The position numbers and the translations under genes were made by a program. The notes under the pieces are model-generated. The model was given only the letters and a program-made list of their open reading frames with translations, was not told the origin of the DNA and made no database searches. This document shows, piece by piece, positions 15,503-31,959 of a stretch of 64,000 nucleotides of DNA; the first letter of the stretch is position 1, and each line of letters begins with the position of its first letter. This stretch comes from a virus. Lineage: Duplodnaviria; Heunggongvirae; Uroviricota; Caudoviricetes. Where the stretch lies: the IMG/VR virus record IMGVR_UViG_2695420859_000012; one strand, 5' to 3'.

Positions 15503-15889
15503 ATGTCTGACAACAAGATTGAATTTATAGAAAGTCGCTATGCTGCTTTTATCGCAGGGCTGATTGAATCCTCACCTATGAGTCAGGCCCAAATAGCCAG
15601 ACTTATTGGTTATAAAAATGCCAACAACCTTTCTTTAATTAAAAGTGGCAAAATTCCTTTGCCTATCGATAAGGTTCGTCCGTTGGCGCTGGCGCTGGGT
15701 ATTGAGCCAAGTCGTCTTATGATGATGGTGCTGGAAGAACGCCAACCTGAACTCGCAGCATTTTTATACAAAGAAGGCACCGCTCCTCTTAACGAGGACG
15801 AAAAACAGGTTCTTGCTGCATATAACGAGCGATTCGGTAAAGAGAAAGGCGCATCACAAAAGGTTGTTGAGGCCATAAAGTCTCTATGA
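15503..15889 (+). CDS. HTH transcriptional regulator (XRE-like)
   Basis: HTH-like segment MSQAQIARLIGYKNANNLSLIKSGK; plus strand, 3' end overlaps recombinase 3' end. Confidence 0.6.
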   Translation: MSDNKIEFIESRYAAFIAGLIESSPMSQAQIARLIGYKNANNLSLIKSGKIPLPIDKVRPLALALGIEPSRLMMMVLEERQPELAAFLYKEGTAPLNEDEKQVLAAYNERFGKEKGASQKVVEAIKSL

Positions 15890-16987
15890 AAAATTTACAC
15901 GAATAAGCTCTGTTGATAGACGATCTCCCTTGAATTTGTGGTCAATTTCGTCTAAATCCGGTTGCTCTACGATTGATGCGATGTACGTCGAGAAACTTTC
16001 TAAGGCGTCTCGCATCTCGTCCATATAATCGTGCCGGTCGTAGACTCGATCTATCCCCTCAAGACTGTGGTTCATGATTTTGCGTGATACCTCCTGGCTT
16101 ATGCCTAATGCTGGGAAGTAACTACGCGCAGTGCGGCGCAAGTCTCGGGGTGTAAATGGCTCAAGCTCCATCAGTTCTGGTCGTTCCAGAATACGACGTA
16201 ATGCCTGGGCTATTGCCACTTTAGACATAGGAAGGTCTTTCCCGATTTTTTTATTCGAAGGCACGAGCCACTGGCTGCCTTTACCGTATTCGAACAACTC
16301 TTCAATGCATGTGCGCATTAATGAGCTTAAAGGCAGAGAATGCTCACGGGCAGATTTGTTCCTCTTGCCTTGATTCCAAACCCCACGCTTAAGATTGAAC
16401 TCACTTTTTTTAGCCCGCAGTACTTCGTCAGGTCGTCTTGCGGATACAAGACATAGCCTGGCCGCCCATTTTGTACCAGCACACACATTGAAGTAGTCCC
16501 ATATATTCCAGAACACCCATACCTCTGCGTCGGTTAGCTTCCGCTCGCGAGGTGTGGGCTTTGCGCCACCGGCAACTTTGTTAAGTGACATATCGTTTAA
16601 CGGTGACACGTCGATCATCCCCTGGAAGGCGCACCAGCTGAGGAACTGCTTCATCAGAGAGAAAACGCGGCGACCCATAACAATTTTGCCATCCAGTATT
16701 AGTGGGTTGACCAGTTGGTTCACCATGAACCTATTAATATCACTTACTTTTACATCGGCAATGTGCGGCAAAACATGTATCAAAATACAATGAACAGCGA
16801 TCTCTGGCCGACGTCTTGTTATCAGCAGAGATAAGCGAGTGAATAACATGAATGCGTCCGAGAATCTCATGTCATTGCTGACCTGGGAGATCATAACGGC
16901 CTGCATTTGAGATGCTCTTTCGAGATACTCAATCGCCTCTTTTGAGGTGTTCTCCGCAGCGCGTGCTCTGTCAAAGCTATTTTTCAT
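15884..16987 (-). CDS. Tyrosine site-specific recombinase / integrase family
   Basis: LVSARRPDEV (catalytic Arg box), RDLRRTARS (HxxR-box variant), NHSLEGIDRVYDRHDY (nucleophile Tyr region). Confidence 0.75.
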   Translation of the reverse strand: MKNSFDRARAAENTSKEAIEYLERASQMQAVMISQVSNDMRFSDAFMLFTRLSLLITRRRPEIAVHCILIHVLPHIADVKVSDINRFMVNQLVNPLILDGKIVMGRRVFSLMKQFLSWCAFQGMIDVSPLNDMSLNKVAGGAKPTPRERKLTDAEVWVFWNIWDYFNVCAGTKWAARLCLVSARRPDEVLRAKKSEFNLKRGVWNQGKRNKSAREHSLPLSSLMRTCIEELFEYGKGSQWLVPSNKKIGKDLPMSKVAIAQALRRILERPELMELEPFTPRDLRRTARSYFPALGISQEVSRKIMNHSLEGIDRVYDRHDYMDEMRDALESFSTYIASIVEQPDLDEIDHKFKGDRLSTELIRVNFS

Positions 16988-17085
16988 ATGACAATCACCG
17001 AGTTACGCCGATGCACTGTATAAGTAAACAGTATATTAGGCATAGATTCTTATAGGATCAAGAGTAAAAGTAACTCATTTTCAGT

Positions 17086-17118
17086 AATGATTCCATACAT
17101 AGTAGGTATGGAATCATT
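17086..17118. other. Candidate recombination core site: 13-bp inverted repeats flanking a 7-bp spacer
   Basis: AATGATTCCATAC (17086-17098) / ATAGTAG / GTATGGAATCATT (17106-17118); arms are exact reverse complements; 130 bp upstream of the recombinase start. Confidence 0.45.
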
Positions 17119-17237
17119 GTAGGCCTTTTTTATAAAATCTGTGATTCTTCTCAGGATAAATTATCTAAACTAAAAATTGTGTTTTGTGTTGGCATCTGCT
17201 TGAATAGACGCATGTTTATTCAGATATGGAATAATCA

Positions 17238-17774
17238 GTGAACAACCAAATTCATTGGGACTACCCATTCTCAGAAGAATTCGGCAGTGGGATGGTACAC
17301 AGACAATTCACTGTGGGAAGCACTATTTATGCCGTTGGGTTTGAACAAATATTGACGATGGATGATTTCACACGTAAGGGAGTTGATATCCTAAATGTAC
17401 ATCCAACATTCCGGTTTCCTCTGAGTGGTGTATGGGGAGTGATTTTTGACGAAATTGACCCTGTAGAAATGGATTTCAAAGGATTTCGGCATATCCAACA
17501 TCAAGGCTTGGCAGGTGGTCAAGTGCTTTTGAATGTTGCAAGTATAATCTTTGACCATTATACTGTTTGTAACGCAGGAGCTTATGTCTTCTCCGCCGCA
17601 GACGACCATCAGCATTTACGCAGAACTGACTTGGTAGACATTTACTGTAAGATACTAGGTCTAAATGGAAAACGTAAAAGTAGATTGTTCGCCAATGGTT
17701 TTCCTGGATGGGAGGCATACTGTGATGTACCAACAGGAGGAAGAGGCTATGTCGTCACGACTGAAAGTTATTAA
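17238..17774 (+). CDS. Hypothetical protein, weak GNAT-like motif
   Basis: 178 aa; QHQGLAGGQVLL loosely resembles GNAT motif A; plus strand in accessory island. Confidence 0.4.
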   Translation: MNNQIHWDYPFSEEFGSGMVHRQFTVGSTIYAVGFEQILTMDDFTRKGVDILNVHPTFRFPLSGVWGVIFDEIDPVEMDFKGFRHIQHQGLAGGQVLLNVASIIFDHYTVCNAGAYVFSAADDHQHLRRTDLVDIYCKILGLNGKRKSRLFANGFPGWEAYCDVPTGGRGYVVTTESY

Positions 17775-17976
17775 TTATTACCCCACCTCTGCAGAACGTT
17801 TGAGCCTTGAAATGGGCGAAAGACTACAGAAAGCTGCTGGTCAGGATTTAAAGAACAAGTTGGGTTCAGGGGAAATTAAACTGATTAACGGTAAATATGT
17901 AGGTGAAAGCCTGAAAGTTAATAGCACCTCTATGCTAAAAGCGCGGTTGCGTAAAGCGTATATCTCCGCTAAATGA
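17749..17976 (+). CDS. Small hypothetical protein, overlapping downstream partner of 17238..17774
   Basis: Re-called start ATG at 17749 behind AGGAGG (MSSRLKVINYYPTSAERL..., 75 aa); track ORF 17665..17976 starts further upstream. Confidence 0.35.
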   Translation: MSSRLKVINYYPTSAERLSLEMGERLQKAAGQDLKNKLGSGEIKLINGKYVGESLKVNSTSMLKARLRKAYISAK

Positions 17977-18005
17977 AAAGGCCTATATGGGCCTTTTCAT
18001 TTTTA
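17976..18005. terminator. Intrinsic terminator hairpin between convergent genes
   Basis: aaaaggcc-tatatg-ggcctttt followed by cattttta. Confidence 0.6.
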
Positions 18006-18248
18006 TAGTGTACTCACCAGCGCCGCAAATTCCGTATACCCCCCAATATGCTCTCCATGTATGAATATCTGAGGTATGGTATCCACTGGTTTACCAACCT
18101 GGTTGCTCAACGTTTCTTTGTTGATCCCCGCAGATGTAATATCTATATACTCATAATCACCGTAGCCATGTCCCTTTAGTTGCTTCGCCAACTCGACCGC
18201 ACGTTTGCAGTATGAGCAGTTATCTCGTCCGTAGATAGTGATCGTCAT
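18003..18248 (-). CDS. Glutaredoxin (NrdH-like redoxin)
   Basis: 81 aa with CSYC active site (MTITIYGRDNCSYCKRAVELA). Confidence 0.8.
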   Translation of the reverse strand: MTITIYGRDNCSYCKRAVELAKQLKGHGYGDYEYIDITSAGINKETLSNQVGKPVDTIPQIFIHGEHIGGYTEFAALVSTL

Positions 18249-18421
18249 AACTTAACAAATACCTTTATAAATATTGATTCGAACATATCAGACTATACTA
18301 CAAACAGATTTTTTTGATAAGTATGTAGTAACTTATTGATTGACTAGTAAACAATTGAAGTGATTACGACAATAGATTACAGTAAGGATTGCCTTGAAAT
18401 GTACATTTTATAGAGGTTTTA

Positions 18422-19330
18422 ATGATTGGTAAGTTGTCTGATTCTTTGATTGAAAATAAATACAACGAATTTAGAGAAGAAATATCTTTACTTTTTGACT
18501 ATTTAAATCAGATAAATGATACAACAAAGAAAAATATAAAACGTCTTCTTAAAGAAGTGGAGTATGCACAAAATCCAGATACTATTATTAATATTAATGA
18601 AACTATTAAGATTAAGTGTGGCACAACGTTAGCTCGCCATTTATGTTCAAACCCATATACAGGTTCAACATTAGAGATAGGTAACAGCGCCATTGATTTA
18701 GAAGAAAAGATAAGATTGTGTAATACTTTGAAAAATAAACAATATCAGTGGGTTATTACTGAAGCCTATGAGTTACTGGAAGACTATATTGAGGCAATAT
18801 ATGTCTATACTGTATGTGTTCGAAATGATTTATGGTCCTCAAGTGATTTTGGTAAGGTTGAAGATGATGAAATTGGGAAAAGGGAAGTTTATTACAGATT
18901 ATTAAAAGCAAAAAGTAACCCATCGAAAAAAATAACTAAAATTTTCAGAAATAAAATACCTGGCTTCAAAGAGATAGAAACAAACAACAAGATTGGCAAA
19001 AACTATCGCTTTAACATCAAGCTAATTGAACTACTAAGACATACAATAGTACACAATAGTGGACGATTCAATGATACAGAAAAATTTATAAATAAGGTTT
19101 TAGATGAATCTGAAATAAACGGTAAGAAAAGAGTTATTGGAGAAAGAGCTGTTAGAAGTTACATTACTAAAGTGCAAGAAGATGATATTGTGATGCTCTT
19201 AGAAAGACCATCTGAAATTTTAGGTTCTTTTGGTGGGTATTTTAACAGAGCAAAATTTTTACTAAGTGATATTTTAGAATACTCACTAATCATTAAAGAA
19301 GAACTAAAATCATATCTAGGCAATCATTAA
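18422..19330 (+). CDS. AT-rich cargo protein with HEPN-like Rx4H motif; candidate abortive-infection/defence protein
   Basis: 302 aa; LLRHTIVHNSG (R206-x4-H211); Lys/Asn/Ile-rich; AGAGG RBS; own terminator. Confidence 0.45.
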   Translation: MIGKLSDSLIENKYNEFREEISLLFDYLNQINDTTKKNIKRLLKEVEYAQNPDTIININETIKIKCGTTLARHLCSNPYTGSTLEIGNSAIDLEEKIRLCNTLKNKQYQWVITEAYELLEDYIEAIYVYTVCVRNDLWSSSDFGKVEDDEIGKREVYYRLLKAKSNPSKKITKIFRNKIPGFKEIETNNKIGKNYRFNIKLIELLRHTIVHNSGRFNDTEKFINKVLDESEINGKKRVIGERAVRSYITKVQEDDIVMLLERPSEILGSFGGYFNRAKFLLSDILEYSLIIKEELKSYLGNH

Positions 19331-19331
19331 C

Positions 19332-19362
19332 AAAAAAGGGGCCGAAGCCCCTTTGGATTTTG
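19332..19362 (+). terminator. Rho-independent terminator
   Basis: aaaaggggc-cgaa-gcccctttt then ggatttt. Confidence 0.7.
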
Positions 19363-19427
19363 CGCTTAAAAAAGTGTTGCTAGGATGTTAGCAAGCTATG
19401 GTTAAGAACGTCTGCCGTAATTGTCTA

Positions 19428-19505
19428 TCACAGCGTTGAGCGGTCTGGTTTATGTTAGCGGAGTCTTAATCGAGTTGATTAAAAGGCCAAACCGCTCAAC
19501 GCTGT
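19428..19505. repeat. Long stem-loop (15-bp inverted repeat cacagcgttgagcgg / ccgctcaacgctgtg) abutting tRNA-Ser 3' end
   Basis: Perfect 15-bp arms, about 48-nt loop. Confidence 0.6.
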
Positions 19506-19507
19506 GT

Positions 19508-19594
19508 CTGGCGGAGAGTAATGGAATCGAACCATCATCGCTTGCGCAATGGGACGGTTTTCAAGACCGCTTGAGCACCATGCTCCCTACTCTC
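19508..19594 (-). tRNA. tRNA-Ser (anticodon UGA), type II, CCA encoded
   Basis: Own cloverleaf: acceptor GGAGAGU/ACUCUCC, anticodon loop CUUGAAA, long variable arm, T-loop GGTTCGATTCC. Confidence 0.7.
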
Positions 19595-19694
19595 CAGCTA
19601 TTGTGATGGTCGGTGCTGAACTCCGACACAGGGTTGTAGCAAGCCCCGCAAAGCGCGCACTACTGTAGTTGCGGCACATCAGCCTGTGCATTCA

Positions 19695-19773
19695 TCACAA
19701 CGGTAAGATCACTACCTTTCGACCAGTCATTGTGCACATGAACGACGATTAACCGTAATGATCTTATCGTTGT
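19695..19773. repeat. Stem-loop of the CACAACGGTAAGA family
   Basis: cacaacggtaagatcac pairs with atgatcttatcgttgtg. Confidence 0.55.
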
Positions 19774-19824
19774 GTTGTGAAGCCAGATGCTTATCTTCTG
19801 GTTGCTTCAAAGAGCTGCACTTCC

Positions 19825-19913
19825 TCACAACGGTAAGAGCACTGGTCTGACTCTATCGATTTACGGCCTTGTGGGTCAGTATCGCCGATTCGCCCAATGC
19901 TCTTACCTGTTGT
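19825..19913. repeat. Stem-loop of the CACAACGGTAAGA family abutting tRNA-Thr 3' end
   Basis: cacaacggtaagagca pairs with tgctcttacctgttgtg. Confidence 0.55.
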
Positions 19914-19914
19914 G

Positions 19915-19990
19915 TTGGTGCCGGTTAACGGACTTGAACCGCTGGCCATTCGCTTACAAAGCGACTGCTCTACCAACTGAGCTAAACCGG
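19915..19990 (-). tRNA. tRNA-Thr (anticodon UGU), CCA encoded
   Basis: Own cloverleaf: acceptor GCCGGUU/AACCGGC, anticodon loop UUUGUAA, T-loop GGTTCAAGTCC; 76 nt. Confidence 0.65.
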
Positions 19991-19994
19991 CAAT

Positions 19995-20081
19995 TTGGTG
20001 GGGAGTGATGGAGTCGAACCACCCGAGTCGCCATGACAGTAGATTTACAGTCTACACCGCTACCTCTACGGACTAACTCCC
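19995..20081 (-). tRNA. tRNA-Tyr (anticodon GUA), type II, CCA encoded
   Basis: Acceptor GGGGAGU/ACUCCCC, anticodon stem GUAGA/UCUAC with loop CUGUAAA, long variable arm. Confidence 0.7.
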
Positions 20082-20086
20082 CTAAA

Positions 20087-20161
20087 TTGGCGATGGTGGG
20101 TGGATTCGAACCACCGACCAGTTGGTTAACAGCCAACTGCTCTACCGCTGAGCTACACCAT
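20087..20161 (-). tRNA. tRNA-Asn (anticodon GUU), CCA encoded
   Basis: Acceptor GAUGGUG/CACCAUC, anticodon stem GUUGG/CCAAC with loop CUGUUAA, T-loop GGTTCGAATCC. Confidence 0.75.
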
Positions 20162-20430
20162 CAATTCAGCACTGCCAGTATTTATTACTCAACAGTGCCA
20201 ATCGCGACGGTTTAGTTTCTGCCAGGAAACGCACCGCTACTTGCACTTTTCGTTAGTGCCAGACGCTTTCGACTTCGCTCAATAGTAGAAGGCAAAATCT
20301 TTAAGTAGATGATGTTTCTGAGGACAGCACCTACTTTGTAATTTATACAATGTGATGTATGGAATCATTTGTTGTGAAAACAGGCACCAATGGCAACAGT
20401 GGTTAAACCTACACAACAATCCCGTCTTCA

Positions 20431-20550
20431 CAACGTTGAGGCCACTACTCCGATTGAATGTTTGCCCAACATGTTACATATCAACGCTCGCCGGTATCTC
20501 TGTGAATAGAACCTTAGAATTGATAAAAATGTAATGGCCTCAACGTTGTG
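20431..20550. repeat. Long stem-loop (cacaacgttgaggcc / ggcctcaacgttgtg)
   Basis: Perfect 15-bp inverted repeat, about 90-nt loop; shares CACAACG start with the other tRNA-region stem-loops. Confidence 0.55.
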
Positions 20551-20711
20551 TGCTGGCTAACCATACCAGCCGGGCTACGTCGCCGCTTTTTAACCCAGTA
20601 TAAACGACATAATTGAACAAAATGACGTAACAGGATGGGCGGTCAGTGGCTAAGAATCCGGGAGTCATATGGAGTTGAAAATATACCAACCGCCCATTCT
20701 GTTACTTCATC

Positions 20712-20735
20712 GGAGGGAACATGAATGTTCCCTCC
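20712..20735. repeat. Perfect palindrome ggagggaacat-ga-atgttccctcc
   Basis: 11-bp arms, 2-bp spacer, no T-run. Confidence 0.6.
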
Positions 20736-20940
20736 TGCGTTCTGCAATCACACTCGCTCAGTGTGTCCCATTTCGGTAACGAGGCTGGAAACTGACCTCG
20801 CTGGTGTTTGGCTTATTAGGCTACTGCCAGATAGACTTCTTCGTTTGCACTTGTATTTAAGTTCAAACAGTCGCGTCTCAACGAAAACAAAGTCATCTTA
20901 TACATAAAAGATAGGTAAGTAAATACTTATCGAAATGTTT

Positions 20941-21231
20941 TTATTCGGTTGTGACTTTTTTGATCAAGGCCACTCTACGATCAGGTGTTCTTGTGATGGT
21001 GGCAGTGAATCGTTTCGCTTGGATAGTAATGGTTTCGTTCTCATTAAGTTGCCCGTAGCGAGTTTCCACAAGGGTACCAAGACGCCACAGGCCATCATCA
21101 ATACGTTTATGGCTAGCAAATTTAATCAGCAGCAGTTTTACGACTAACTGCCCTACGTAAAAAGCGAATGCGACTCCGGCTGCCATAAAATAGGTTGCCA
21201 ACCACCATTCCCAAGAAGTTAAATTGCTCAT
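20941..21231 (-). CDS. Small membrane protein
   Basis: 96 aa with N-terminal hydrophobic segment. Confidence 0.4.
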   Translation of the reverse strand: MSNLTSWEWWLATYFMAAGVAFAFYVGQLVVKLLLIKFASHKRIDDGLWRLGTLVETRYGQLNENETITIQAKRFTATITRTPDRRVALIKKVTTE

Positions 21232-21376
21232 TTTCTCACCTTTGTTTCATGAACTACCCGATACACACGCTTTCCGATGCACAGTGTTTTGGTTTTAAGT
21301 TCCTGCTTAATTAAGTCACGACAGATGCCGAAGCCGATAAGGAAGCCACCCATAAAAGCTAATGAGATGTATGGAA
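21224..21376 (-). CDS. Very small membrane protein (not in ORF track)
   Basis: Own translation: MIPYISLAFMGGFLIGFGICRDLIKQELKTKTLCIGKRVYRVVHETKVRK; start coincides with one copy of the GTATGGAATCATT motif. Confidence 0.3.
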
Positions 21377-21592
21377 TCATTTTAACACTCCTGATTCTAC
21401 TAATTGCTGTAGCAATACTTTCCCTTTATCAGTTAACTGGTAGTTGGCCGAACACTTCGTTTCAGAAACGTTTGCAACCAACCCTAAACGCTCTAACTTA
21501 GCTCGCGTTTTAGGCTTCCAGTACTCAGGGAACTCCGGCCACTTACTGATTTCATGAAGCGTTTCCTTCTCCCGTTTACTTAATACGATCAT
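21377..21592 (-). CDS. Small hypothetical protein
   Basis: 71-aa ORF. Confidence 0.4.
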   Translation of the reverse strand: MIVLSKREKETLHEISKWPEFPEYWKPKTRAKLERLGLVANVSETKCSANYQLTDKGKVLLQQLVESGVLK

Positions 21593-21751
21593 CCTTAATC
21601 TCCTTCACGGTGTTGGTTATTTCTACAATGCGATAAATGCGACCGCGTCTTTCTATAACACCGTTTTTAATGTAGTCATTAATGCAACTGGACATCACCA
21701 CAATACCGATGAAAAAACCAACTGCTAAAAATGCAATCATCCAGCCGAGCA

Positions 21752-23074
21752 TCATTCTTTATCTCCGATTCGATCTTCTGTATCGCGTAAGCAACGCGGC
21801 CATTTCAGTCGTGGGTGGCGTAAGCTGCCATCAGGTGTTTTCTCGTGACAATGAACCTCGACAATACGACCACGGTACTTCTCTTTGTTGTTCCAGATCT
21901 CGTCCAGATATTTATGCTTAATGCCGCTCGCACGAACGATGACGCCGTTTTCAAGACGAATAACAATTTTTCCAAGCGTGTTGGCAAAACCAGAGTCCGG
22001 GTCGCCCGGCTCAAAATCGATAATTTCACCATCTTCTGAATCTTCGTCTTTTAACTTCCACCAGCTGCGGGTACGTTTAAATTCGTAAACAGAGTTCGGA
22101 TCTTTGCCCATCTCCCCTTCTTCGTTATCGTCCAGGCGTTTCATGAAGCGTTCGATGAAGTCTTCGTGGCTATGGATGATGTAGAACGGATGCAGGTGAA
22201 TGTCTTGTGCGTAGCCTTCACTGCGATCGTTTTTGAACAACGCCACGAGCATAGCCAGGCGCTCTTTCAGCTTCATACCTGTCTTTGCATACTCTTTGGA
22301 TTTAGCCTGTGCTCGCCATTCCGGTAGGAAGAAGTCGAAAACATGATAAATAGCGCCAATTGCCTGCACGTTCTTTTTGCGCAATGCAGATACGGACTGG
22401 TTAAATGAACCGGCTGTGCCTTCACCATCGAAGAAGATGTGTTTGTGGCCTGAAAGTTTGCCTAATTCGAGCATGGCTGGCTTTAGGTGATCGAGAGACG
22501 TGATTGGATTACCAGTACGAGAAAGGAAGTTAACCTCTTCTTCGTCAACAATAACCTCGCAAATTACTCGCAAACCATCGAGCTTAAGGCTGCCAATCAT
22601 CGGCCATTTTGCTTTAGGGTTTGGCTTGAAGGGGTATTTGTCGCCTTTTTCTTTATACGGTGACGCCAGCTGCACCTCGAATTTCGGAATGGGATTTTCA
22701 AAAACCTTGTTACATAGGCTAATCCCAACGCCAGCTTTCGGATCTTTTAAGAGGAAACGACGGAAGACGTCCTGCCCATCGGCGCACATTGACGCCACGA
22801 TAGACTCAACAGCAACTATTGCTGCGTTCCCCGTCAGCTCGCGAGAGGCCAGCTTATTCAGTATATCAATGGCTTTTTCGTCACTTGGGACGGACTCACT
22901 AAGCGGCTCTGCCACTTTGTATTTTTTTACCCCAAAACGGATGAAAGGGTTGAGCATCAATGAAACCATGCTTTGCTCGAAGTCATCCATGTTGGCCAAT
23001 GCCTCTTTTTTTGCATTGGTTCCCATAGCTTTCATTTCGTCCAGCTTATGCTTAAGTGCGATCAACTTTTTCAT
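21752..23074 (-). CDS. ATP-dependent DNA ligase
   Basis: Adenylation motif KLDGLR; downstream FFDGEG and WWKLK motifs. Confidence 0.85.
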   Translation of the reverse strand: MKKLIALKHKLDEMKAMGTNAKKEALANMDDFEQSMVSLMLNPFIRFGVKKYKVAEPLSESVPSDEKAIDILNKLASRELTGNAAIVAVESIVASMCADGQDVFRRFLLKDPKAGVGISLCNKVFENPIPKFEVQLASPYKEKGDKYPFKPNPKAKWPMIGSLKLDGLRVICEVIVDEEEVNFLSRTGNPITSLDHLKPAMLELGKLSGHKHIFFDGEGTAGSFNQSVSALRKKNVQAIGAIYHVFDFFLPEWRAQAKSKEYAKTGMKLKERLAMLVALFKNDRSEGYAQDIHLHPFYIIHSHEDFIERFMKRLDDNEEGEMGKDPNSVYEFKRTRSWWKLKDEDSEDGEIIDFEPGDPDSGFANTLGKIVIRLENGVIVRASGIKHKYLDEIWNNKEKYRGRIVEVHCHEKTPDGSLRHPRLKWPRCLRDTEDRIGDKE

Positions 23075-23541
23075 TGTTGTTTTACCTCCATATGTTGATC
23101 GATTTGCTCATGTGTTTCTTTTGTTGTTTCTTCAAGCAACGCCGCATACACGTCAGTGATCGCTGTTTGTGATGTGGTGCTCTTCTTAACCATGCTATTA
23201 ATCGTTACACTGTCACGTTTTCGTTTTATAGTTCTGGCTTGTTTATTCCGTTCTTCAACCTCCTTAATGAGCGCGGTCATATCTTCGAAATACAGAGATT
23301 CTCCTTTACGAATCTCTTCAACCATCATTTTTAACGCCTTGCATTTGCCTGCTTTAATAGCGGTTGCGCACGACTGGAAAGAAGTTCGAGGAAGACGGTT
23401 TTCTTTGAAGGCAAGAATGGTGTGCTGGCAAACGGAATAGCTGCAATATGTCGACTCACCGTTTATCTTTACTTCCTCACAACGAAGTGAATAACCGTTA
23501 TTTCCTGAAATAGAAGGGATTTTTGACAAATCAGCTTTCAC
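23071..23541 (-). CDS. Hypothetical Cys-containing protein
   Basis: 156 aa, apparent GTG start, weak RBS. Confidence 0.35.
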   Translation of the reverse strand: MKADLSKIPSISGNNGYSLRCEEVKINGESTYCSYSVCQHTILAFKENRLPRTSFQSCATAIKAGKCKALKMMVEEIRKGESLYFEDMTALIKEVEERNKQARTIKRKRDSVTINSMVKKSTTSQTAITDVYAALLEETTKETHEQIDQHMEVKQQ

Positions 23542-23607
23542 AATTACCGCCAGAAATAATCTTGTGCTTACCTATCATTATTTGCGTAAAAACGACACAC
23601 AGAGAGC

Positions 23608-24384
23608 TTACCAACTTCCCCAGCTAATCATCTTGCGCTGATCGCTTTCTAAGCGATAAGGGGCAAGAAGCTCTGTGACATGATTGGTGGCGTATGATTT
23701 AGCCTCTTGCTTAATCATCGGTAATTCGTTAGCAATCCTGACCATCTTCCCAGCAAATTCCGCCATTACGCCATCACAAGCCTTCCCCGCATCAACAACG
23801 ATATGCACAAGATCCAACTGGCTTTTGCACATATCCCAAAGAGACGCGTATTCACTCTCTCTGATTACATTTACGGCACTATTAGCCCCTTTATTAATCA
23901 AAACTTCCAACAGATTTTTCGGGGTAACGAAATCTGCTTTCAGAGATAATGTCTTTTCACCACTTATCGAACGCAAGTACTCTTCGTAGTTATTCTTCAT
24001 CAAACCGCTGCTGCGCATTGCTAGAACTGCTTCTTGAATGGCCGCTTCAATAGTTTCGTCGTTTGAAAGACAAAAAACGGTATTTGTGTAGATCACTCTG
24101 CCATCAAGCCATGCTCCAACCTGCACTTTAAGACTGAGCGGGTTTTCTTTGCTAATAAAAACAACTAATGCAGAACGCCGTGCACAAGAAGGTTCGCCCC
24201 ATACGTGTAACTCAACCTTCAGATAAGGCAACCCTGGTAGCGGGATCTCGTCCATACGAGCAGCGATATGATTCATTGCTGTATTGACGGCCTTTCCAAT
24301 GATGTCTAGTCGACTGCCCTCGCTGATTTCTAAACCTGTTTTATCAATGATGTCACAGGCCAATTTCTGAATTTCGTCTTTCAT
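23608..24384 (-). CDS. Hypothetical protein
   Basis: 258 aa; TAAGTA-N6-TACTTA dyad about 43 bp upstream. Confidence 0.4.
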   Translation of the reverse strand: MKDEIQKLACDIIDKTGLEISEGSRLDIIGKAVNTAMNHIAARMDEIPLPGLPYLKVELHVWGEPSCARRSALVVFISKENPLSLKVQVGAWLDGRVIYTNTVFCLSNDETIEAAIQEAVLAMRSSGLMKNNYEEYLRSISGEKTLSLKADFVTPKNLLEVLINKGANSAVNVIRESEYASLWDMCKSQLDLVHIVVDAGKACDGVMAEFAGKMVRIANELPMIKQEAKSYATNHVTELLAPYRLESDQRKMISWGSW

Positions 24385-24509
24385 ACCAACTCCTAGCTAA
24401 CAGATGAAAGTATTCTTACAAAAAACTAAGTATGTATCTACTTATCATTTTAGGCGCAATAGTTCCCTATACGAAGATGCCGGGCTTATAGTCTGCCCGG
24501 CATTCACCA

Positions 24510-24923
24510 TTAATGAGCTACAGCCTCACTGTTGCACATCTTTCTGTAGACCTGCTTATAACGCTGTAAGTCATGAGGATCATTAGGTGCCAACGACTTC
24601 GATAGGATTTTGTATACCACCCCTTTCGAAAACATGCCCTTTGGCTTCATTTCGAGTTCAACAACATATGAGTGATAGCCCACGTATGCACCAAAGCCAT
24701 TTTTGGCGTTCAATTCTCCGCACACAAAGCCTGTCACACTCCCATCGTCATGATCAGTCCTGACAAACTTATCTTTCCTAAACATCACCGACGTGGGATC
24801 TTTCATATCATCCGCAATTGCTTGTTGGCCCAGAGCAATAGCCTTCTCGTCTGTAGGCTTACACCCCACTAAAGCAAACAAAGACAATAAAGCTCCTGTT
24901 AAAATCAGCTTATTTTTGCTCAT
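24510..24923 (-). CDS. Lipoprotein, function unknown
   Basis: 137 aa; lipobox LVGC. Confidence 0.5.
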   Translation of the reverse strand: MSKNKLILTGALLSLFALVGCKPTDEKAIALGQQAIADDMKDPTSVMFRKDKFVRTDHDDGSVTGFVCGELNAKNGFGAYVGYHSYVVELEMKPKGMFSKGVVYKILSKSLAPNDPHDLQRYKQVYRKMCNSEAVAH

Positions 24924-25156
24924 GTTGGCTTCCCTTTATTTATATTTATCGCAGGTATTAGTTAATCAAAACACGAGCAGTGCCACAATAATTAAATGGC
25001 GTACTATTTCTTATGGTTATTAGTTTCCTAGTAACTTTACCGACCATAAACTAAATCAACAAAGCTGACATATTAACTAAATTTAAGTACCATTTTTCGC
25101 ACACTTGACACTTGCCGCGTCTAAACTGTTCATCCTATATCAACAGAACAAAAAAT

Positions 25157-26302
25157 ATGAAATACATAAAATCTTCATCGTTGCTGGCATTAACTTTGCT
25201 TTTTAGCTCTGGATTCGTTAACGCAGACAATAAACAAACGCTGATAGAAGCCGCTACCGCAGGGGATACCGCAGCACAAAGTGAGTTAGGGACAAATTAT
25301 TTTGATGGTATCAATGGTTTTGATAAGGATGTAGTTGAGGCCAAGAAGTGGATTGATCTCGCTGCAGAAAAGGGAGACAAAGTAGCATATTATGCACTTG
25401 GGGTTATGTACACATTTGGCGAGGGTGTAGATAAAGACTTAAATAAAGCAGTTGAGTACTACAAACTTGCGGGAGATGCTCGTGAAGGTAGAGCCTATAA
25501 CAATCTTGGTGCTATTTATCAAAAGGGGATGCTTGGTAAAGTAGATCATGCGCTCGCCATTAAATACTTCAAACTAGCCTCTGATGCCGGGTATGTTAAA
25601 GCTAGCTACCTTCTTGGTGCGTATTACCAATATGGTAAAGGTGTACAAAAGAGTTATAAAAAAGCTTTTACTTATTACAAAAAAGCGGCGGATCAAGGTA
25701 GTTCAGATGGCATGTTCGCATTAGGCACCTTATACGATGACGGTTTAGGTGTTAAACGCAACGATGCCGAAGCAATTAAGTGGTATAAAAAAGCTGCTGA
25801 ACTCGGAAACGCCGATGCCATGACAAATCTTGGCATTATGTATGAGTATGGTGAAGGGGTTAAAAAAGACTATAAAAAAGCAGCTGAGCTTTATCAGGCT
25901 GCTTGTGATAAAGAAGATAAAAATGGCTGTGATTACATTGCAGAACTGAAAGAAAGCGGCAAATATCGAGCGCCGGCTTCCAAAGCCAAAACAAAATCCG
26001 CCACCCAGCGACTTATTGCTAAATCCATTGATAAGGGCGTTAACGCTACATTTACCTGGCAGGGTGATGATGCTACCTTCACCGCTAATGATGGCAAAGT
26101 TGACTGCACCTTCCTGAAGGATTTTTCAGAGAAAGGAGGCAATCTGGCTACCTCGTTTGTTTGCACCGATAACGTTCAAATCATACTGAAGCAATTCAGA
26201 GATACCAAGAATGCCTACCTCGCGGTAATGACTGACAACTTCAACACAGAAGTTAAATCATTTTCGGTCAATGTGTACGTGACTAATACTGGTTCAAACT
26301 AA
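25157..26302 (+). CDS. Secreted Sel1-like repeat protein with unknown C-terminal domain
   Basis: Start re-called at ATG 25157 (MKYIKSSSLLALTLLFSSGFVNA); tandem Sel1-type repeats (KWYKKAAELGNADAMTNLGIMYEYGEGV...); about 115-aa non-repeat C-terminus. Confidence 0.7.
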   Translation: MKYIKSSSLLALTLLFSSGFVNADNKQTLIEAATAGDTAAQSELGTNYFDGINGFDKDVVEAKKWIDLAAEKGDKVAYYALGVMYTFGEGVDKDLNKAVEYYKLAGDAREGRAYNNLGAIYQKGMLGKVDHALAIKYFKLASDAGYVKASYLLGAYYQYGKGVQKSYKKAFTYYKKAADQGSSDGMFALGTLYDDGLGVKRNDAEAIKWYKKAAELGNADAMTNLGIMYEYGEGVKKDYKKAAELYQAACDKEDKNGCDYIAELKESGKYRAPASKAKTKSATQRLIAKSIDKGVNATFTWQGDDATFTANDGKVDCTFLKDFSEKGGNLATSFVCTDNVQIILKQFRDTKNAYLAVMTDNFNTEVKSFSVNVYVTNTGSN

Positions 26303-27547
26303 TGCTGCTATGCCTTTTACCTTGCTTAAAAGTTCAAGCTGTCGTGAGTAAGGTTTTGCGCAATAGTAGGCTTTGATAATCTGCCCCGGGGTCGCATCGC
26401 CGGGGTCGAGTCCTTCCTCGCCCAAACATGCAATTTTCACATTAAGACCGATACTGGTCAGTCGCCTGGCTGCGGCCATAGTGTTTCGTATAGCTTGCTT
26501 TTCACTATCCCACATCATGATCACATTACGTAATCCACGCGCCTTGAGCGTCAGGAACGCGCCCAACTGATCTTCTGCATCCTGAGTGGTGTTACCAGAT
26601 AGATGCATCCCGAACGTTCCTATTGGTTCCACGTAATCGCGTAATGTTTCTTCGTCAAAAATAGCTCGTTTGACCCCCATAACATCGAACGCCCCCTCAC
26701 AGACAACTACAGTCTGTTTGCCGACTGCATTGTGGCCGTTGTAGAGAAACTTACCTGAAGCTGGAAGCTGCATAGGAAAGAGGTAGCGGCGTTCTGCTGT
26801 ACCGGTAATGTCTCGTCCTTGAAATGTCTTCATTACCCCATCCAGATCGTAAACCGGTATCAGTATTCGCATATCGAAAATCTGTCCTTTAACCTGATCT
26901 GTATACGGATCTACATAAGCGTGCTTGCCTTCGACGCAGTATCGTAGGTCAAAATACTTTGCCATTTCAGGCGATATATTTCGTTCAACCAGATAGTCTG
27001 GAAGATGGCCATCTATAGGAAGATCGTAATGACGAGGGAGTGCAACTGGTCCCTCTAACTCGACTGTGCTTGCAAGCACTATCTCTTCTTTCTTTGGTGC
27101 CCACCCCTGGGAAAGAAGAGCGTTCTGCACATATTCCTCGAACTGTCGTCGTGATTTACCGCTGTAGTGCTTGAGGAAGACCAGCTTATTGAACTGAATC
27201 TCTTCGGGATGATCACCAGCGAAGCATTTACCGACGCCACTGGTCAGATTGAAATATACCTTCCAGTTGGAGCTGCCGCATACCGGACACTCCTTGATAT
27301 TCACTTCACGACCGCGAGTACTCACGCCTCCACGTCGATAAACGATACCTTCAGTATCCAACCATTGTTCAAAATCTAATTCGGTAATTAGCTCTTTCAG
27401 CTCGCTCACGATAATTCCACTTTTAACAGGCAATATTGTGACCAACCTAAATGTTGATATAACATAAAGGCTCATGTGTTTTTCTTTTGTGGTTTGGCAA
27501 AAGAAAAGTTGTTTCACCAATGAATCAAGCGTGGAGGTGTTCTCCAC
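26294..27547 (-). CDS. DNA primase (zinc finger + TOPRIM)
   Basis: CPVCGSSNWK...CFAGDHPE; TOPRIM-like VVVCEGAFDVMGV with downstream acidic residues; follows helicase gene. Confidence 0.7.
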   Translation of the reverse strand: MENTSTLDSLVKQLFFCQTTKEKHMSLYVISTFRLVTILPVKSGIIVSELKELITELDFEQWLDTEGIVYRRGGVSTRGREVNIKECPVCGSSNWKVYFNLTSGVGKCFAGDHPEEIQFNKLVFLKHYSGKSRRQFEEYVQNALLSQGWAPKKEEIVLASTVELEGPVALPRHYDLPIDGHLPDYLVERNISPEMAKYFDLRYCVEGKHAYVDPYTDQVKGQIFDMRILIPVYDLDGVMKTFQGRDITGTAERRYLFPMQLPASGKFLYNGHNAVGKQTVVVCEGAFDVMGVKRAIFDEETLRDYVEPIGTFGMHLSGNTTQDAEDQLGAFLTLKARGLRNVIMMWDSEKQAIRNTMAAARRLTSIGLNVKIACLGEEGLDPGDATPGQIIKAYYCAKPYSRQLELLSKVKGIAALV

Positions 27548-27556
27548 GCTTATTTT

Positions 27557-28897
27557 TTAGGTAACGTCTAAGATTCGCTCAATGAAGCGCATTTGTTCGA
27601 GGTTTTGTTTAACGCGAATGCTGATCCCTCCCTGCTGGTTACGCGAACCAGCAAAGTAGAGACGAGCCTCTCCTTTCGCTTCTTCTTCTTCGGTTTTGTT
27701 GATCGTTATTACCAGGTCAGCAATACGTACTTTTTCGATGTTGTCGGCAGCGTGCATCATTGTGGCAACTTCTGACGCGCCACCTTCACGGTTTGTTTGC
27801 GACGCCGTGATACCAGCAACGTTATGCTTGTCATAAAGAGCACGTAAATCGGTGTAGATACTACGAATGTTGGCGCGATCATCACGAAGGTCATAACTGG
27901 CACGCATCAAATCTGCGTAGTCGACAACAACCATGTCAGGCACCATGCCATTGGCTTTCATACTGTTAAGCATACGGTCCAGATCTGCCGGTGACATACT
28001 TCCTGACGGACGCTCAACAACCCACAAACTACCAATCCCCTTCGTGGCTCCCAACTCTGCCAACTTGCGATGAACTTCATCGCGCCGTTCCACCAGCTTG
28101 GACATTTCCGTCTCCGACAATCTTGCATCAAAACGGTCGGACAAAATGGTGGTGTGAACCTCCAGCGAGAGATACAGAACATTGTAGCCAGCAAGCGTAG
28201 CGTTTATGGAAAACTCACCCATTGCGGTCGATTTACCGGATTTAGCAAAACCCATGAAGAGCACCATTTCGCGCTTTGCCCAGCCTTTTTGGTACAGCAA
28301 TCTATCAAGCAGAGGGAGTCCAGTTGTAATGCTGTTTGGCACATACTCCTCTGAAGCCTCATATTCACGCGCTTTCAATCGCTCACTTGCGGAGGTGTAG
28401 TAGTCATAGATTCCGGTCGCTTCGTTCGAGCCTATCTGCTGAACCTTGGCCATGATTGCCATCGCCCCCTGAAAGTCGCCCTTCTCTTTCAGTTCAGCAG
28501 CTTTAATCAGAGCATCATCAAACGCTACACTTTTTGCGAATGTGGATACCTGGTCAACCATGTACGAGGTATCAGACAATTTTTCTGCAAGGATGCGCTT
28601 AAACGCAGCAACAACATCCGGGAAGAGTTCCTCACGGATGGTCTTATCGCGTTTCGCACGCTTAAGCATATCCAGAATCGCAGATGAAGAAGGCGCGCTC
28701 TTGTACATACGGTAATAGCCCGAAACCATATTAACCAATATGGCATTGGCCGCATTGGCAAATTGGCTAGGCACAACCAGATCTCCCGCACGAGTAAGAA
28801 ACTCGTGATCACGACAAAAATATGCCGTCAGTCTGTTCTGGAAATCTTCATCAAACTCTTCGGACAGCCCGCGTCCTGTATGGCAAAGTTCGGTCAT
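27557..28897 (-). CDS. Replicative DNA helicase, DnaB-like
   Basis: Walker A FMGFAKSGKST; ADLVITINK strand. Confidence 0.75.
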   Translation of the reverse strand: MTELCHTGRGLSEEFDEDFQNRLTAYFCRDHEFLTRAGDLVVPSQFANAANAILVNMVSGYYRMYKSAPSSSAILDMLKRAKRDKTIREELFPDVVAAFKRILAEKLSDTSYMVDQVSTFAKSVAFDDALIKAAELKEKGDFQGAMAIMAKVQQIGSNEATGIYDYYTSASERLKAREYEASEEYVPNSITTGLPLLDRLLYQKGWAKREMVLFMGFAKSGKSTAMGEFSINATLAGYNVLYLSLEVHTTILSDRFDARLSETEMSKLVERRDEVHRKLAELGATKGIGSLWVVERPSGSMSPADLDRMLNSMKANGMVPDMVVVDYADLMRASYDLRDDRANIRSIYTDLRALYDKHNVAGITASQTNREGGASEVATMMHAADNIEKVRIADLVITINKTEEEEAKGEARLYFAGSRNQQGGISIRVKQNLEQMRFIERILDVT

Positions 28898-28940
28898 GTG
28901 CTTTCCTTTGTTTTTTAAACAAATTGTTTTCTAGTATTAG

Positions 28941-29681
28941 TTAATTAGATAGGGGATCAATAAACCGCCGTGCTTCTTCCAGTTCTTCTGGAAAGTGGGC
29001 GGAAATAAGGCGCTCTGGAACGATTTCCATTAGCCAGATAGCGGAGAAAATTGCGCGTATGCGCTTGCTGCGGGGGATGGTGCGTAAACGCTCCAGAATC
29101 CACTCAAAATAGCTTTCCTGGATCGGGTTGAACTGCATGTCTCCCATATGCTTAAAGCTAACTAGAGAGTCATCCAGACGGGTTGTTGCGCGTCTGGCTA
29201 ATTTCTCTTCGAATATCTCAACCAGCTCTGGCTGCCATAAATGCTGTGGGCGCGGCAGCTTGTCCCACAGCCGTCGTGCAGCTGCGGAAAGAACGGTGGA
29301 GATAAAGTAGTCGTATGAGCAGCAATAGCGGTCAGCAAACTGGCGTGCTTTCCATAGAGACGTTTTATTGGCAGTCGACAACTCCTGATAAGGCAGGCGT
29401 TTTAACCCGGTGGTGAACGGAGCTGTTTCAAAGTGTTCGCGACCGTGCGTCAGCATGATATTTGAGTACTGACGTTTGTATGCCTCCGTAAAAAGACAGG
29501 TGGCCATGAGAGGATGCATGTCGCGGTAATCAAACCACTTCGTCTCGAAGAGTTCAGCCTCGTCTTTACAGCGCGACAAACCAATGTTTTCAGCGACCCA
29601 CTTGTCCATAACAGCGGTATTCCACTCTGTCATGAAGTCGTACTGGTCGTTGTCGATGGTATCGAAAAAGATTTGGCTCAT
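28941..29681 (-). CDS. Hypothetical protein, first gene of helicase/primase operon
   Basis: Start moved to ATG at 29679-29681 (AGGTGAG RBS; track ORF starts at GTG 29690); no recognisable motifs. Confidence 0.4.
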   Translation of the reverse strand: MSQIFFDTIDNDQYDFMTEWNTAVMDKWVAENIGLSRCKDEAELFETKWFDYRDMHPLMATCLFTEAYKRQYSNIMLTHGREHFETAPFTTGLKRLPYQELSTANKTSLWKARQFADRYCCSYDYFISTVLSAAARRLWDKLPRPQHLWQPELVEIFEEKLARRATTRLDDSLVSFKHMGDMQFNPIQESYFEWILERLRTIPRSKRIRAIFSAIWLMEIVPERLISAHFPEELEEARRFIDPLSN

Positions 29682-29797
29682 GTGGCTCACCTGGTAGGTA
29701 GTTACTTACTTATCACAATGAGCGGATGATAGCGACTGGTGGCAGTTTTTGGAAGTGGAAACGGAAGGGAGTTGTTCTGGTGGTGTCTTTTAAAAGA

Positions 29798-29852
29798 CCT
29801 GCTTCCGTATATATTTAATAAGTTACTTATTATTTATATATACAGAAGCAGG
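29798..29852. repeat. 55-bp palindromic element, copy 1
   Basis: cctgcttccgtatatatttaataagttacttattatttatatatacagaagcagg; identical to 62647-62701. Confidence 0.9.
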
Positions 29853-29963
29853 CATAACTTGTCGTCTTAGACGCCCAGAAGCTCTACACTTTGAGCCTGT
29901 TAAATTGATTAAAAACTTATGTGTAAAATAGAACGCATTAGTCAGTAGCAAAGAGATGCAATA

Positions 29964-30731
29964 ATGGACGATTTATCGGTATACGCGAGATCATTGGATA
30001 AGGCTAAATACTATGTTTACTGTCTCTATGATACAGAAGACAAGATGAAAAGACCGTTTTACATAGGAAAAGGCAAATCGACTCGTTGTCTCGATCACAT
30101 CAAGTATCCCGATGACTCTCCCAAATCCATGCGGATCAAAGAACTTTTGGCTAATAAAAAATTAGGCATAGATATACTTCGTCATGGTATGGATGAAACC
30201 ACAGCCAAACTTGTTGAGGCGACATGCATCGACCTTATGGGGGTCGGAGAGCTTACGAATAAGGTACGAGGAAGTGGTTCCATGATGGGCAGAATATCAC
30301 TGGACGCCTACCATCACTTAGTGCTGCAAGAGGAAACTGAAATTGCTCCTGAGCACGCCGGTCTTGCCTTCCTGCTAAACAGCACCTACAAGTCAGGAAT
30401 GTCCGCTCTGGCATTATATGAGGCTACGCGTGGCGTATGGGCAAAGGTTCCAAGAGACGAGAATCTCAAATATGCCTACGCTACATATGGTGGGCTGATA
30501 ATGGAAGTTTATCAGATTGAATGCTGGGTCAAAGCCGGTTCTCAGCAGTACTTTACAAGGGATATAGCTCTTGGCCCCGACACAAAACGTTATGAATTTG
30601 TTGGCAGAATAGCCGATGAGCATATTAGAAAACTGTATGTAGGCAAATTAATCAAGAAGCCACCAAGCTACGGTAGCCCTTTTGTGAAGGTTGGGGTGGT
30701 TAGGACTGAACATAGTGTTAGCGCGGCATAA
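29964..30731 (+). CDS. GIY-YIG nuclease-domain protein (possible free-standing homing endonuclease or cargo nuclease)
   Basis: N-terminal YYVYCLYD...PFYIGKGKSTR; about 150-aa unknown C-terminal region. Confidence 0.6.
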   Translation: MDDLSVYARSLDKAKYYVYCLYDTEDKMKRPFYIGKGKSTRCLDHIKYPDDSPKSMRIKELLANKKLGIDILRHGMDETTAKLVEATCIDLMGVGELTNKVRGSGSMMGRISLDAYHHLVLQEETEIAPEHAGLAFLLNSTYKSGMSALALYEATRGVWAKVPRDENLKYAYATYGGLIMEVYQIECWVKAGSQQYFTRDIALGPDTKRYEFVGRIADEHIRKLYVGKLIKKPPSYGSPFVKVGVVRTEHSVSAA

Positions 30732-30749
30732 AGCTGACACTGTAGTTAT

Positions 30750-30786
30750 GCATTGGCGCAATGTACGCGCCAATGCATGATTTTTA
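30750..30786. terminator. Bidirectional intrinsic terminator between GIY-YIG gene and parG-like gene
   Basis: gcattggcgc-aatgtac-gcgccaatgc followed by atgattttta. Confidence 0.7.
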
Positions 30787-31143
30787 ACCTTTCTTCATCA
30801 ACTCTCGTTTGATTTCATCGGTACGCATCGTGACATCGGCAGCGGTGATCGCCTCATTCAATTTCACGATGTCCTCGATTTCCTGCGGTGACTTCTCTGC
30901 CAGATGGAAAATGGCTGCTCGAATCACGTCAGAACGAGTGAACTTCTCGAAGCGAGGGATGAACTTCATCATCTCCAGCAGTTCGAAGTATTCGTCCTCC
31001 AGTGACATTGTGCGGCTTTTAATTTTCTCTTTGCCACGAGTCGGGCGTCCCTGTGGTCTGACTGGTTGGCGCAAAGGAGTTGTGTTCTTAGCCGGTGCAT
31101 CAGGCTCTTTGCGCTTTGCTAGGTCACCCATTTTCATGGACAT
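30784..31143 (-). CDS. Small partition-operon partner protein (ParG/ParB-like)
   Basis: Immediately downstream of parA (ATGA overlap); basic N-terminal tail. Confidence 0.5.
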   Translation of the reverse strand: MSMKMGDLAKRKEPDAPAKNTTPLRQPVRPQGRPTRGKEKIKSRTMSLEDEYFELLEMMKFIPRFEKFTRSDVIRAAIFHLAEKSPQEIEDIVKLNEAITAADVTMRTDEIKRELMKKG

Positions 31144-31811
31144 TATTCTTCTTCCTCCAGACTCAACAGATAATCTACAAATTCTTCAAACTCGGCTTCC
31201 GCCTTTTTGTCGCGCTCGCTACCGGTCATTTCAAAGATAGAACGACCAGACTCTTCCGCATCATCATAGACGTTGCGGTTATATAGATTGACTGGCGCAG
31301 ACTCGATGCCAAACGTCTCAACAATCTCTTTAGCCGCCAGAATGCGAGACACTTGTGATGGCAAAGCCGGGCACTGGTTCATGACCGCGCGGACCTTCAC
31401 TTTATCGTTTACATTACGAACATTGTCGATAATAGGATCGATGTCACGCAGAGATTTCAAATCACGACGCTTAGGACGAAGCGGGATAATGATAACGTCG
31501 GCCATCAGCATCGCTTGTCGCTGAATTTCGGAGTCAAAGCCACCAGCATCTACCACTACATACTCAGCTCTACCCTGAAGCGATTTTAGGTGCTTAATGA
31601 TGTCATCCTGAACGTATGCAAAAGGAATCAGCTCAAGGTCTTCGTTCTGTCGACGGTCTTCACACCAGCTCGTTGTCGTGCGCTGAATATCTATATCGGT
31701 GATATAAACCTTCTTCTTCTTTTTGACTTTCAGGCAAACGGCAATTTGCTGGGCAACGGTGGATTTGCCAGGCCCGCCCTTTGTGCCGCCAACCACAAAG
31801 ATCTTGGTCAT
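31143..31811 (-). CDS. parA: ParA/ParF-family partition ATPase
   Basis: Deviant Walker A GGTKGGPGKST; 222 aa. Confidence 0.85.
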   Translation of the reverse strand: MTKIFVVGGTKGGPGKSTVAQQIAVCLKVKKKKKVYITDIDIQRTTTSWCEDRRQNEDLELIPFAYVQDDIIKHLKSLQGRAEYVVVDAGGFDSEIQRQAMLMADVIIIPLRPKRRDLKSLRDIDPIIDNVRNVNDKVKVRAVMNQCPALPSQVSRILAAKEIVETFGIESAPVNLYNRNVYDDAEESGRSIFEMTGSERDKKAEAEFEEFVDYLLSLEEEE

Positions 31812-31959
31812 TGGAGAGTTCCCTTTGCGTATATAATTATCGTCTGAAACAACTTGTTTTCTTATATGTGATATAGCCTAAATGCCTACGGCTGTGGTGT
31901 AAAGGTTAAATGGTAGGTGCTGCCTTAGAATTTTTAGGCGAGAATCAATGGCTGTTAAC

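Follow-up and report, generated by a model that had tools for sequence, protein, structure and literature searches.

An uncharacterised protein family that precedes and co-diverges with the gp41-like helicase of SSU5-like phage-plasmids as a candidate helicase-loading factor

The closest described systems for the locus presented here are the helicase loaders and replication initiators of bacteriophages T4, lambda and SPP1. T4 gp59 is all-helical, lambda P is about 233 aa long, and the lambda O and SPP1 G38P initiators bind iterons within their own genes and carry winged-helix domains. Acidic C-terminal tails recruit partner proteins in T4 gp32 and bacterial SSB. SSU5-type phage-plasmids, for their part, spread resistance genes, and to our knowledge their replication initiation is not understood. 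The T4 helicase gp41 self-loads inefficiently, and gp59 is needed for efficient loading in vivo (PMC10187150). The VdhL loader is G39P-like and represents a different family from the one described below (PMC11087808).

The DNA analysed here is a stretch of 64,000 nucleotides from a member of the Caudoviricetes (IMG/VR record IMGVR_UViG_2695420859_000012), hereafter the window, which protein and DNA searches identify as part of an Escherichia coli SSU5-like phage-plasmid. Bases 15000-31900 are 100% identical to the E. coli plasmid pM160133_p3, and the protein of interest, given the working label X, is 99% identical to that of Escherichia phages CMS-2020a and Cyrano and 89% to that of Salmonella phage SSU5. 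As the initial annotation had stated, X lies directly upstream of DnaB-like helicase and primase genes. All three are on the minus strand; the stop codon of X is followed after 43 nt by the helicase, and the primase comes next after another 147 nt. The features concerned are as follows.

28941..29681, minus strand: gene X (working label), encoding a 246-aa all-alpha protein of phrog_2500 and heading the X-helicase-primase unit
29686..29692, minus strand: Shine-Dalgarno sequence AGGTGAG for X, read off the sequence, 4-5 nt 5' of the ATG at 29681
27557..28897, minus strand: replicative helicase of the DnaB family (DnaB_C, E = 3.9e-13; phrog_19, E = 1.2e-87)
26294..27409, minus strand: primase of the DnaG/gp61 type (DNAG_N and Toprim_2; phrog_47, E = 1e-62), 371 aa from the RefSeq start

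Two open reading frames are possible for X, one from a GTG (29690..28941, 249 aa) and one from an ATG (29681..28941, 246 aa). The ATG at 29681 is taken as the true start because a Shine-Dalgarno sequence lies upstream of it, the alternative GTG at 29690 falls inside that very sequence, the alignments of homologues begin at MSQIFF, i.e. at the ATG, and the RefSeq entry (WP_021512317.1, 'hypothetical protein') is likewise 246 aa long. The coordinates 28941-29681 given initially are thereby retained, and the accompanying length of 249 aa is three residues too many. X matches phrog_2500, a family of unknown function, with E = 3.1e-113, its residues 4-244 covering positions 1-247 of the 248-position profile, and a distant metagenomic family member matches the same profile with E = 5e-62; since phrog_2500 carries no functional annotation, membership names X and does not explain it. 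An exhaustive profile search (E <= 0.001) gathered 914 clusters at 50% identity in two length classes, a short class of about 230-260 aa and a long class of about 310-370 aa. The phrog_2500 match and the 914 family clusters establish X as a genuine gene and not a chance open reading frame. Searches of Pfam, NCBIfam, PADLOC and PDB sequences, with the single protein and with profiles, gave no match above threshold (in Pfam nothing at E <= 0.1), and X has no Walker motif; the first impression that it holds no recognisable motif was accurate. Having no PADLOC match, X was also rejected as a defence protein. Searches of the literature on SSU5 replication and on new phage loaders turned up no account of the family.

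The AlphaFold2 model of X, built with 24 homologues, is confident (pLDDT 85, pTM 0.83) and consists of about 15 helices and no strands, with a floppy loop at residues 84-91. Foldseek searches of this model against PDB and BFVD returned nothing at E < 0.1, so the fold has no demonstrable known relative. Structure prediction and profile search, both proposed in the initial annotation as checks, thus yielded a confident all-alpha model, membership of phrog_2500 and no clear homology to an unrelated function, and the family as a whole is large, uncharacterised and structurally orphan. Several residues are invariant (K48, W49, D51, Y52, R53; W110, R113, Q114, D117; Y123; P143, R144, P145), and presumably the polar and aromatic ones among them make up a site that binds DNA or a partner. 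With a pI of 5.8 the window protein is mildly acidic and so unlike a general DNA binder.

The replication set of the window includes a RecA/UvsX-like protein, a 5'-3' exonuclease, a gp32-like SSB (PF08804, E = 1.7e-66), Pol III alpha, a ligase, the helicase and the primase; a partition gene of the ParA type is also in the window, and a weak UvsY-like candidate gene is present in the element. The best PDB sequence matches of the window helicase are 8DUE and 8DTP (E ~1e-11), which are structures of T4 gp41 (PMC10187150), and the sole other helicase matched in PDB, 6kza ('Replicative DNA helicase'), is far weaker at E = 7e-4. The SSB ends in the acidic tail EDEGLDDLLRELDSL. None of the replication-region genes scanned matches gp59, lambda P, DnaC, DciA or another known loader family, and the loader slot among them is therefore open. 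Several other features of the window are of note in their own right. The RecA/UvsX-like gene at 1691-4030 (minus strand) contains an intein that carries a homing endonuclease domain of the LAGLIDADG type (RecA, E = 1.5e-36; LAGLIDADG_3, E = 2.4e-17; Intein_splicing, E = 2.1e-11; all Pfam), and DNA polymerase III alpha is in two pieces within 7008-11320 (minus strand). At 11501-14940 (minus strand), inside the replication region, a gene for an AAA_5 (MoxR/CobS-like) ATPase adjoins one for a CobT-like VWA protein, a pairing known from other large phages. An open reading frame of 302 aa at 18422-19330 (plus strand) is very A+T-rich (GC ~0.29-0.32) and looks foreign in composition beside the DNA around it; it aligns full-length with phrog_35492, a family of unknown function, and gave no hit in Pfam or NCBIfam. 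A perfect hairpin with an 11-bp stem (27527-27551) follows directly after the helicase stop codon; it has no U-tract on the operon strand, and since its T-run belongs to the opposite, plus strand, it would stop plus-strand transcripts coming from the side of the Sel1/TPR gene.

5304-6332, minus strand: gp32-like SSB; its linker is long and rich in Ala, Ser and Thr, and its C-terminal tail (…TEDEGLDDLLRELDSL) is acidic
8957-11320, minus strand: Pol III alpha piece 1, with PHP, NTPase and finger domains
7008-8177, minus strand: Pol III alpha piece 2, with an HHH_6 domain
8174-8908: free-standing HNH/NUMOD3 homing endonuclease gene separating the two Pol III alpha pieces

The association of X with the helicase extends far beyond the window. 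Among 82 diverse viral loci of the short class (mean X p-distance 0.60), 75 extend far enough to be evaluated, and all 75 carry a homologue of the window helicase on the same strand at position +2 (69 loci) or +1 (6 loci) of X. The order X-helicase-primase also occurs in SSU5, Cyrano, Pseudomonas phage nickie and Rhizobium phage RHEph10. The usual array reads metallophosphoesterase, PhoH, X, an Hfq/Sm-like protein, helicase, primase and a WGR protein. The window and SSU5-like elements have none of the PhoH, Hfq-like, WGR and metallophosphoesterase genes of this ancestral block, and the members kept in the window are X, helicase, primase, a conserved 156-aa gene (c6) and the ligase. Complete contigs with a short-class X cluster at ~105-115 kb. 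Of the 72,556 plasmids in PLSDB, 925 carry a member of the family; almost all of these are phage-plasmids of ~103-120 kb, a few are larger replicons and none is a small plasmid; the idea that X is a small-plasmid replicon was rejected because the family is confined in this way. The Hfq/Sm-like gene (PF17209, E down to 3e-9; 90-175 aa; cluster c4) lies between X and the helicase in most relatives, for instance at L129 6733-7023, L152 6665-7027 and in 57 other viral loci. It often overlaps the helicase start codon, an arrangement of translational coupling, and is missing from the window and SSU5-like elements; we know of no study of such a coupling between a ring helicase and an Sm protein that forms rings.

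Co-divergence was evaluated by correlating distance matrices across 46 non-redundant loci, with the values listed here.

X and helicase: 0.93
helicase and primase: 0.88
X and primase: 0.87
X and PhoH: 0.73
X and helicase, partial correlation controlling for primase: 0.70
X and primase, partial correlation controlling for helicase: 0.33

Synteny and mirror-tree signals can also come from plain linkage in a single block that is inherited vertically, and linkage can inflate such correlations; PhoH, however, is equally near X and yet tracks its divergence much less well than the helicase does. Over the same 46 loci X evolves faster than both helicase and primase, as accessory factors often do. X is thus syntenic and co-diverging with a gp41-like helicase across a large clade of ~105-115-kb siphoviruses and phage-plasmids.

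Upstream of X, the 55-bp palindrome mentioned in the initial annotation is present at 29798-29852, 117 nt from the ATG, and its suggested relation to an origin was not supported by closer analysis.

29792..29852, minus strand: 55-nt hairpin (29798-29852) with a TCTTTT tract (29792-29797), a predicted intrinsic terminator on the X sense strand
29726..29754, minus strand: putative operon promoter, TTCCAA-17 nt-TATCAT (TATGAT in SSU5), in a block kept in 62 of 62 upstream sequences

Folded as RNA, the window hairpin reaches -30.2 kcal/mol (z = -8.2 versus shuffles). In a comparison of the 14-bp basal stem over 30 distinct variants from SSU5-like elements, the X-sense strand showed 383 Watson-Crick, 33 G-U and only 4 mismatched pairs, whereas the same changes give 35 mismatches (A-C) on the antisense strand. 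Stem position 9 covaries (T-A / C-G / T-G), the upper stem and loop vary freely, and a TCTTTT tail follows in nearly all variants, the 8 nt after the hairpin averaging 5.3 T. The sense fold was stabler than the antisense fold in 26 of the 30 variants (mean -22.4 versus -18.3 kcal/mol). A simple consensus scan did not call a terminator at 29792..29852, because the stem is long and bulged. The palindrome is, as predicted from these patterns, a conserved intrinsic terminator read in the X direction, and it probably shields the replication operon from transcription of the partition genes. It could instead act at the DNA level as a cruciform origin, partition site or operator, and its long stem (about 27 bp), its near-pure A+T centre of ~35 bp between G+C clamps, which resembles an unwinding element, and its position at a mosaic junction between the partition genes and the replication operon would fit such a role. 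We regard this as very unlikely, since G-U pairs are tolerated on the sense strand only (33 G-U against 35 A-C mismatches opposite), one stem position covaries while the upper stem and loop are free in sequence, a T-tract follows, and neither iterons nor a skew switch accompany it; the GC skew is monotonic over the whole window.

The 62 distinct upstream regions of SSU5-like elements are conserved from the hairpin to the X start and mosaic beyond the hairpin. The promoter within the conserved block is putative, as its weak sigma-70-like hexamers were not called by a consensus scan. Judged from this layout, X appears to be grouped transcriptionally with helicase and primase, behind the predicted terminator and the conserved upstream block. 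On the far side of the hairpin, a gene divergent from X (29964-30731, plus strand) codes for a GIY-YIG protein of the LEM-3-like type, with a match to PD-T4-3, which is known from anti-phage defence (PADLOC, E = 1.3e-23; Pfam PF22945, E = 5.5e-7); the slot it occupies between partition genes and terminator is mosaic, and other SSU5-like elements hold different genes there.

Signals of an origin were also sought elsewhere. The gene-poor segment at 19.3-21.7 kb was considered as an origin region and rejected, as it holds four tRNA genes and not iterons.

19509-20162, minus strand: four tRNA genes (Ser-TGA, Thr-TGT, Tyr-GTA, Asn-GTT)

Outside the window, positions 84449-86010 of the pM160133_p3 record (locus L208 6450-8010) comprise 1.5 kb without an annotated or plausible gene. 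This segment contains several degenerate direct repeats, among them three to four copies of a GTGTATGGAGTAATGGCA-like element and a 31-nt tandem pair, and since no Rep is annotated in the parts of the record covered (1-41193 and 73000-113428) it is a candidate plasmid-mode origin.

The long class of the family offers a different genomic setting. Its members consist of the X core with the same invariant residues, followed by a C-terminal Cys-x14-Cys-x2-Cys-x5-Cys motif and an Arg/Lys-rich tail, and the AlphaFold2 model of a long form (pLDDT 94.4, pTM 0.89) shows the cysteine module ordered and a long basic helix at residues 295-319. E41, K48, D51, Y52, R53, R113, Q114, D117, Y123 and Q188 are common to the phage and island forms. 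The long-form genes are chromosomal and mostly alphaproteobacterial (loci L085-L115, e.g. L085 8001-9002), and among the 27 loci where a long-form X was called a tyrosine integrase lies nearby in 20 and a type I restriction R subunit in 11. These islands carry type I restriction-modification or CRISPR-Cas genes and may be satellite-like or a defence-island core. A Pfam census of 150 neighbours at 17 loci counted Phage_integrase (13), ResIII (10), HSDR_N (7), N6_Mtase (5), Resolvase (4) and Cas proteins (2), and these head the 25 commonest families, none of which is a DnaB, primase or Rep family. Within 8 kb of a long-form X, neither a helicase nor a primase of the SSU5 type was detected, and homologues of the window helicase and primase were found only in the five short-class genomic loci. 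Because the invariant core is present where no SSU5-type helicase is nearby, the conserved site is unlikely to be a lineage-specific helicase interface; this setting implies that the site recognises something common to both contexts, such as a DNA or RNA structure, a nucleotide or a conserved host factor.

The reading we favour, with a probability of roughly 0.45, is that X is a helicase recruitment or loading factor non-homologous to known loaders. X would be a conserved accessory protein of the phage gp41-type helicase-primase module, would recruit or load the helicase onto DNA as the functional counterpart of T4 gp59 or lambda P, and would do so with a helical-repeat-like fold unrelated to theirs; physical contact with the helicase and loading activity are what we infer from the genomic association. 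This reading is preferred because of the operon with its 43-nt gap, the synteny in 75 of 75 loci, the selective retention of X, the correlation of r = 0.93 and a T4-like replication set in which no loader is recognised, and the size and all-alpha nature of X, which resemble those of gp59 and lambda P, were counted for it as well. Against it stand the lack of detectable homology to any loader in Pfam, NCBIfam or PDB sequences and the mild acidity of the window protein. The heaviest counter-evidence is the island form with no SSU5-type helicase nearby, together with the alternative partner offered by the Hfq/Sm-like protein, which is coupled to the helicase in most relatives and could be the true ring-loading partner. 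The original proposal that X may be a helicase loader or replication initiator is accordingly supported as far as the helicase link goes (75/75, retention, r = 0.93); the loader or initiator role itself is a reasonable but putative one, and no sequence or fold homology to known loaders or initiators was found.

Other functions have to be weighed against loading, and they draw partly on the same observations. X could be a replication initiator that recognises and opens or marks the origin and then passes it to the helicase, in the manner of lambda O or SPP1 G38P. It is first in the replication operon, no plasmid-type Rep is annotated (RefSeq, PLSDB) in positions 1-41193 and 73000-113428 of the pM160133_p3 record, and the long form, whose added four-cysteine module is ordered and whose long basic helix would suit binding to DNA, sits beside integrases, where island replication initiators often occur. 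Yet there are no iterons in or near X (the repeats in 28800-30100 are weak and two-copy), searches detected neither a winged helix nor any other domain for DNA binding in it, the window protein is acidic, the GC skew does not switch at X, the nearby palindrome is a predicted terminator, and among 72,556 plasmids X is never the replicon of a small plasmid, so that we consider an initiator unlikely. A role as transcription regulator (an activator, anti-repressor or RNA-polymerase-binding protein) for the replication or middle genes would make the adjacency of the helicase incidental; X is the first gene after the terminator, behind a weak promoter that may need activation, and the island form has a basic, DNA-binding-like tail and is sometimes divergent from a small protein that looks HTH-like by eye (with no domain-search support). 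This too seems improbable, more so than an initiator, because X has no HTH or sigma-like domain (Foldseek retrieved sigma-factor chains only at E about 4-6) and regulators seldom keep such strict synteny and co-divergence with a single enzyme gene between sequences this far apart.

Somewhat less remote, although still doubtful, is the possibility that X is a nucleic-acid-processing enzyme or a structure-specific DNA or RNA binder that accompanies the replication block and is not a helicase loader. Possible targets would be forks, D-loops, R-loops or primers, with the same core serving as an accessory factor in the integrase islands. The invariant polar and aromatic set common to phage and island forms is typical of an active or ligand site, the ancestral neighbours act on nucleic acid (metallophosphoesterase, PhoH ATPase, Hfq/Sm-like, WGR, ligase), and the island form again has no SSU5-type helicase nearby; but X matches no enzyme family or fold, co-diverges most with the helicase and not with PhoH, and stays with helicase and primase where the PhoH, Hfq-like and WGR genes are lost. 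The two settings of the family might also be joined under the loading function, with the X core as a new class of replicative-helicase recruiters, without structural precedent, whose long form captures the helicase of a helper phage or the host, a speculation that we would call unlikely as a whole. In phages, X would work in cis with the gp41-like helicase encoded beside it; in islands, the four-cysteine module (Zn or Fe-S) and the basic helix that are fused to the core would tether it to the island DNA. The satellite-like island could then capture either host DnaB or the helicase-primase of a helper phage of the RHEph10 type that infects the cell, and be replicated once excised.

Were this joint reading true, X would be the missing initiator-side factor of SSU5-type phage-plasmids. 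These elements are common in clinical Enterobacteriaceae, as the 925 plasmid records carrying X illustrate, and a family that is always encoded ahead of the helicase and diverges along with it is an obvious candidate for the missing loading step. The long form in integrase and defence islands provides a second, independent handle on what the X core binds. If X is a loader, it would add a further non-homologous helicase-loading solution beside DnaC, DciA, lambda P, gp59 and G39P/VdhL.

A comparison with these systems places X as follows. Like lambda O and SPP1 G38P, X heads a replication operon and precedes the gene for the loader or helicase; unlike them and Rep_3-type initiators, it has no winged-helix domain in Pfam searches and no iteron array. 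With T4 gp59 (217 aa in the T4 record) X (246 aa) has in common that both are small, the model of X being all-alpha, and the setting is gp59-like in that the element combines a helicase of the gp41 type with an acidic-tailed SSB of the gp32 type, a likeness of genomic co-occurrence only. At the sequence level, X gave no match to the gp59 families of Pfam (PF08993/PF08994; T4_Gp59_N / T4_gp59_C) at E <= 0.1, and hhalign with a 52-sequence X profile gave probabilities of 0.03 against T4 gp59 and 0.06 against a 16-sequence gp59 profile. No sequence or fold similarity to lambda P was found, and none in fold to the G39P N-terminal domain of the SPP1 G39P and VdhL loaders. Unlike the AAA+ loaders DnaC/DnaI, X has no GxxxxGK[ST] P-loop, no AAA match and no beta-strands in its model, and unlike DciA (DUF721, KH-like alpha-beta) it has no DUF721 match and an all-alpha model. 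What X is proposed to share with DnaC/DnaI and DciA is the outcome, a DnaB-family hexamer placed on DNA.
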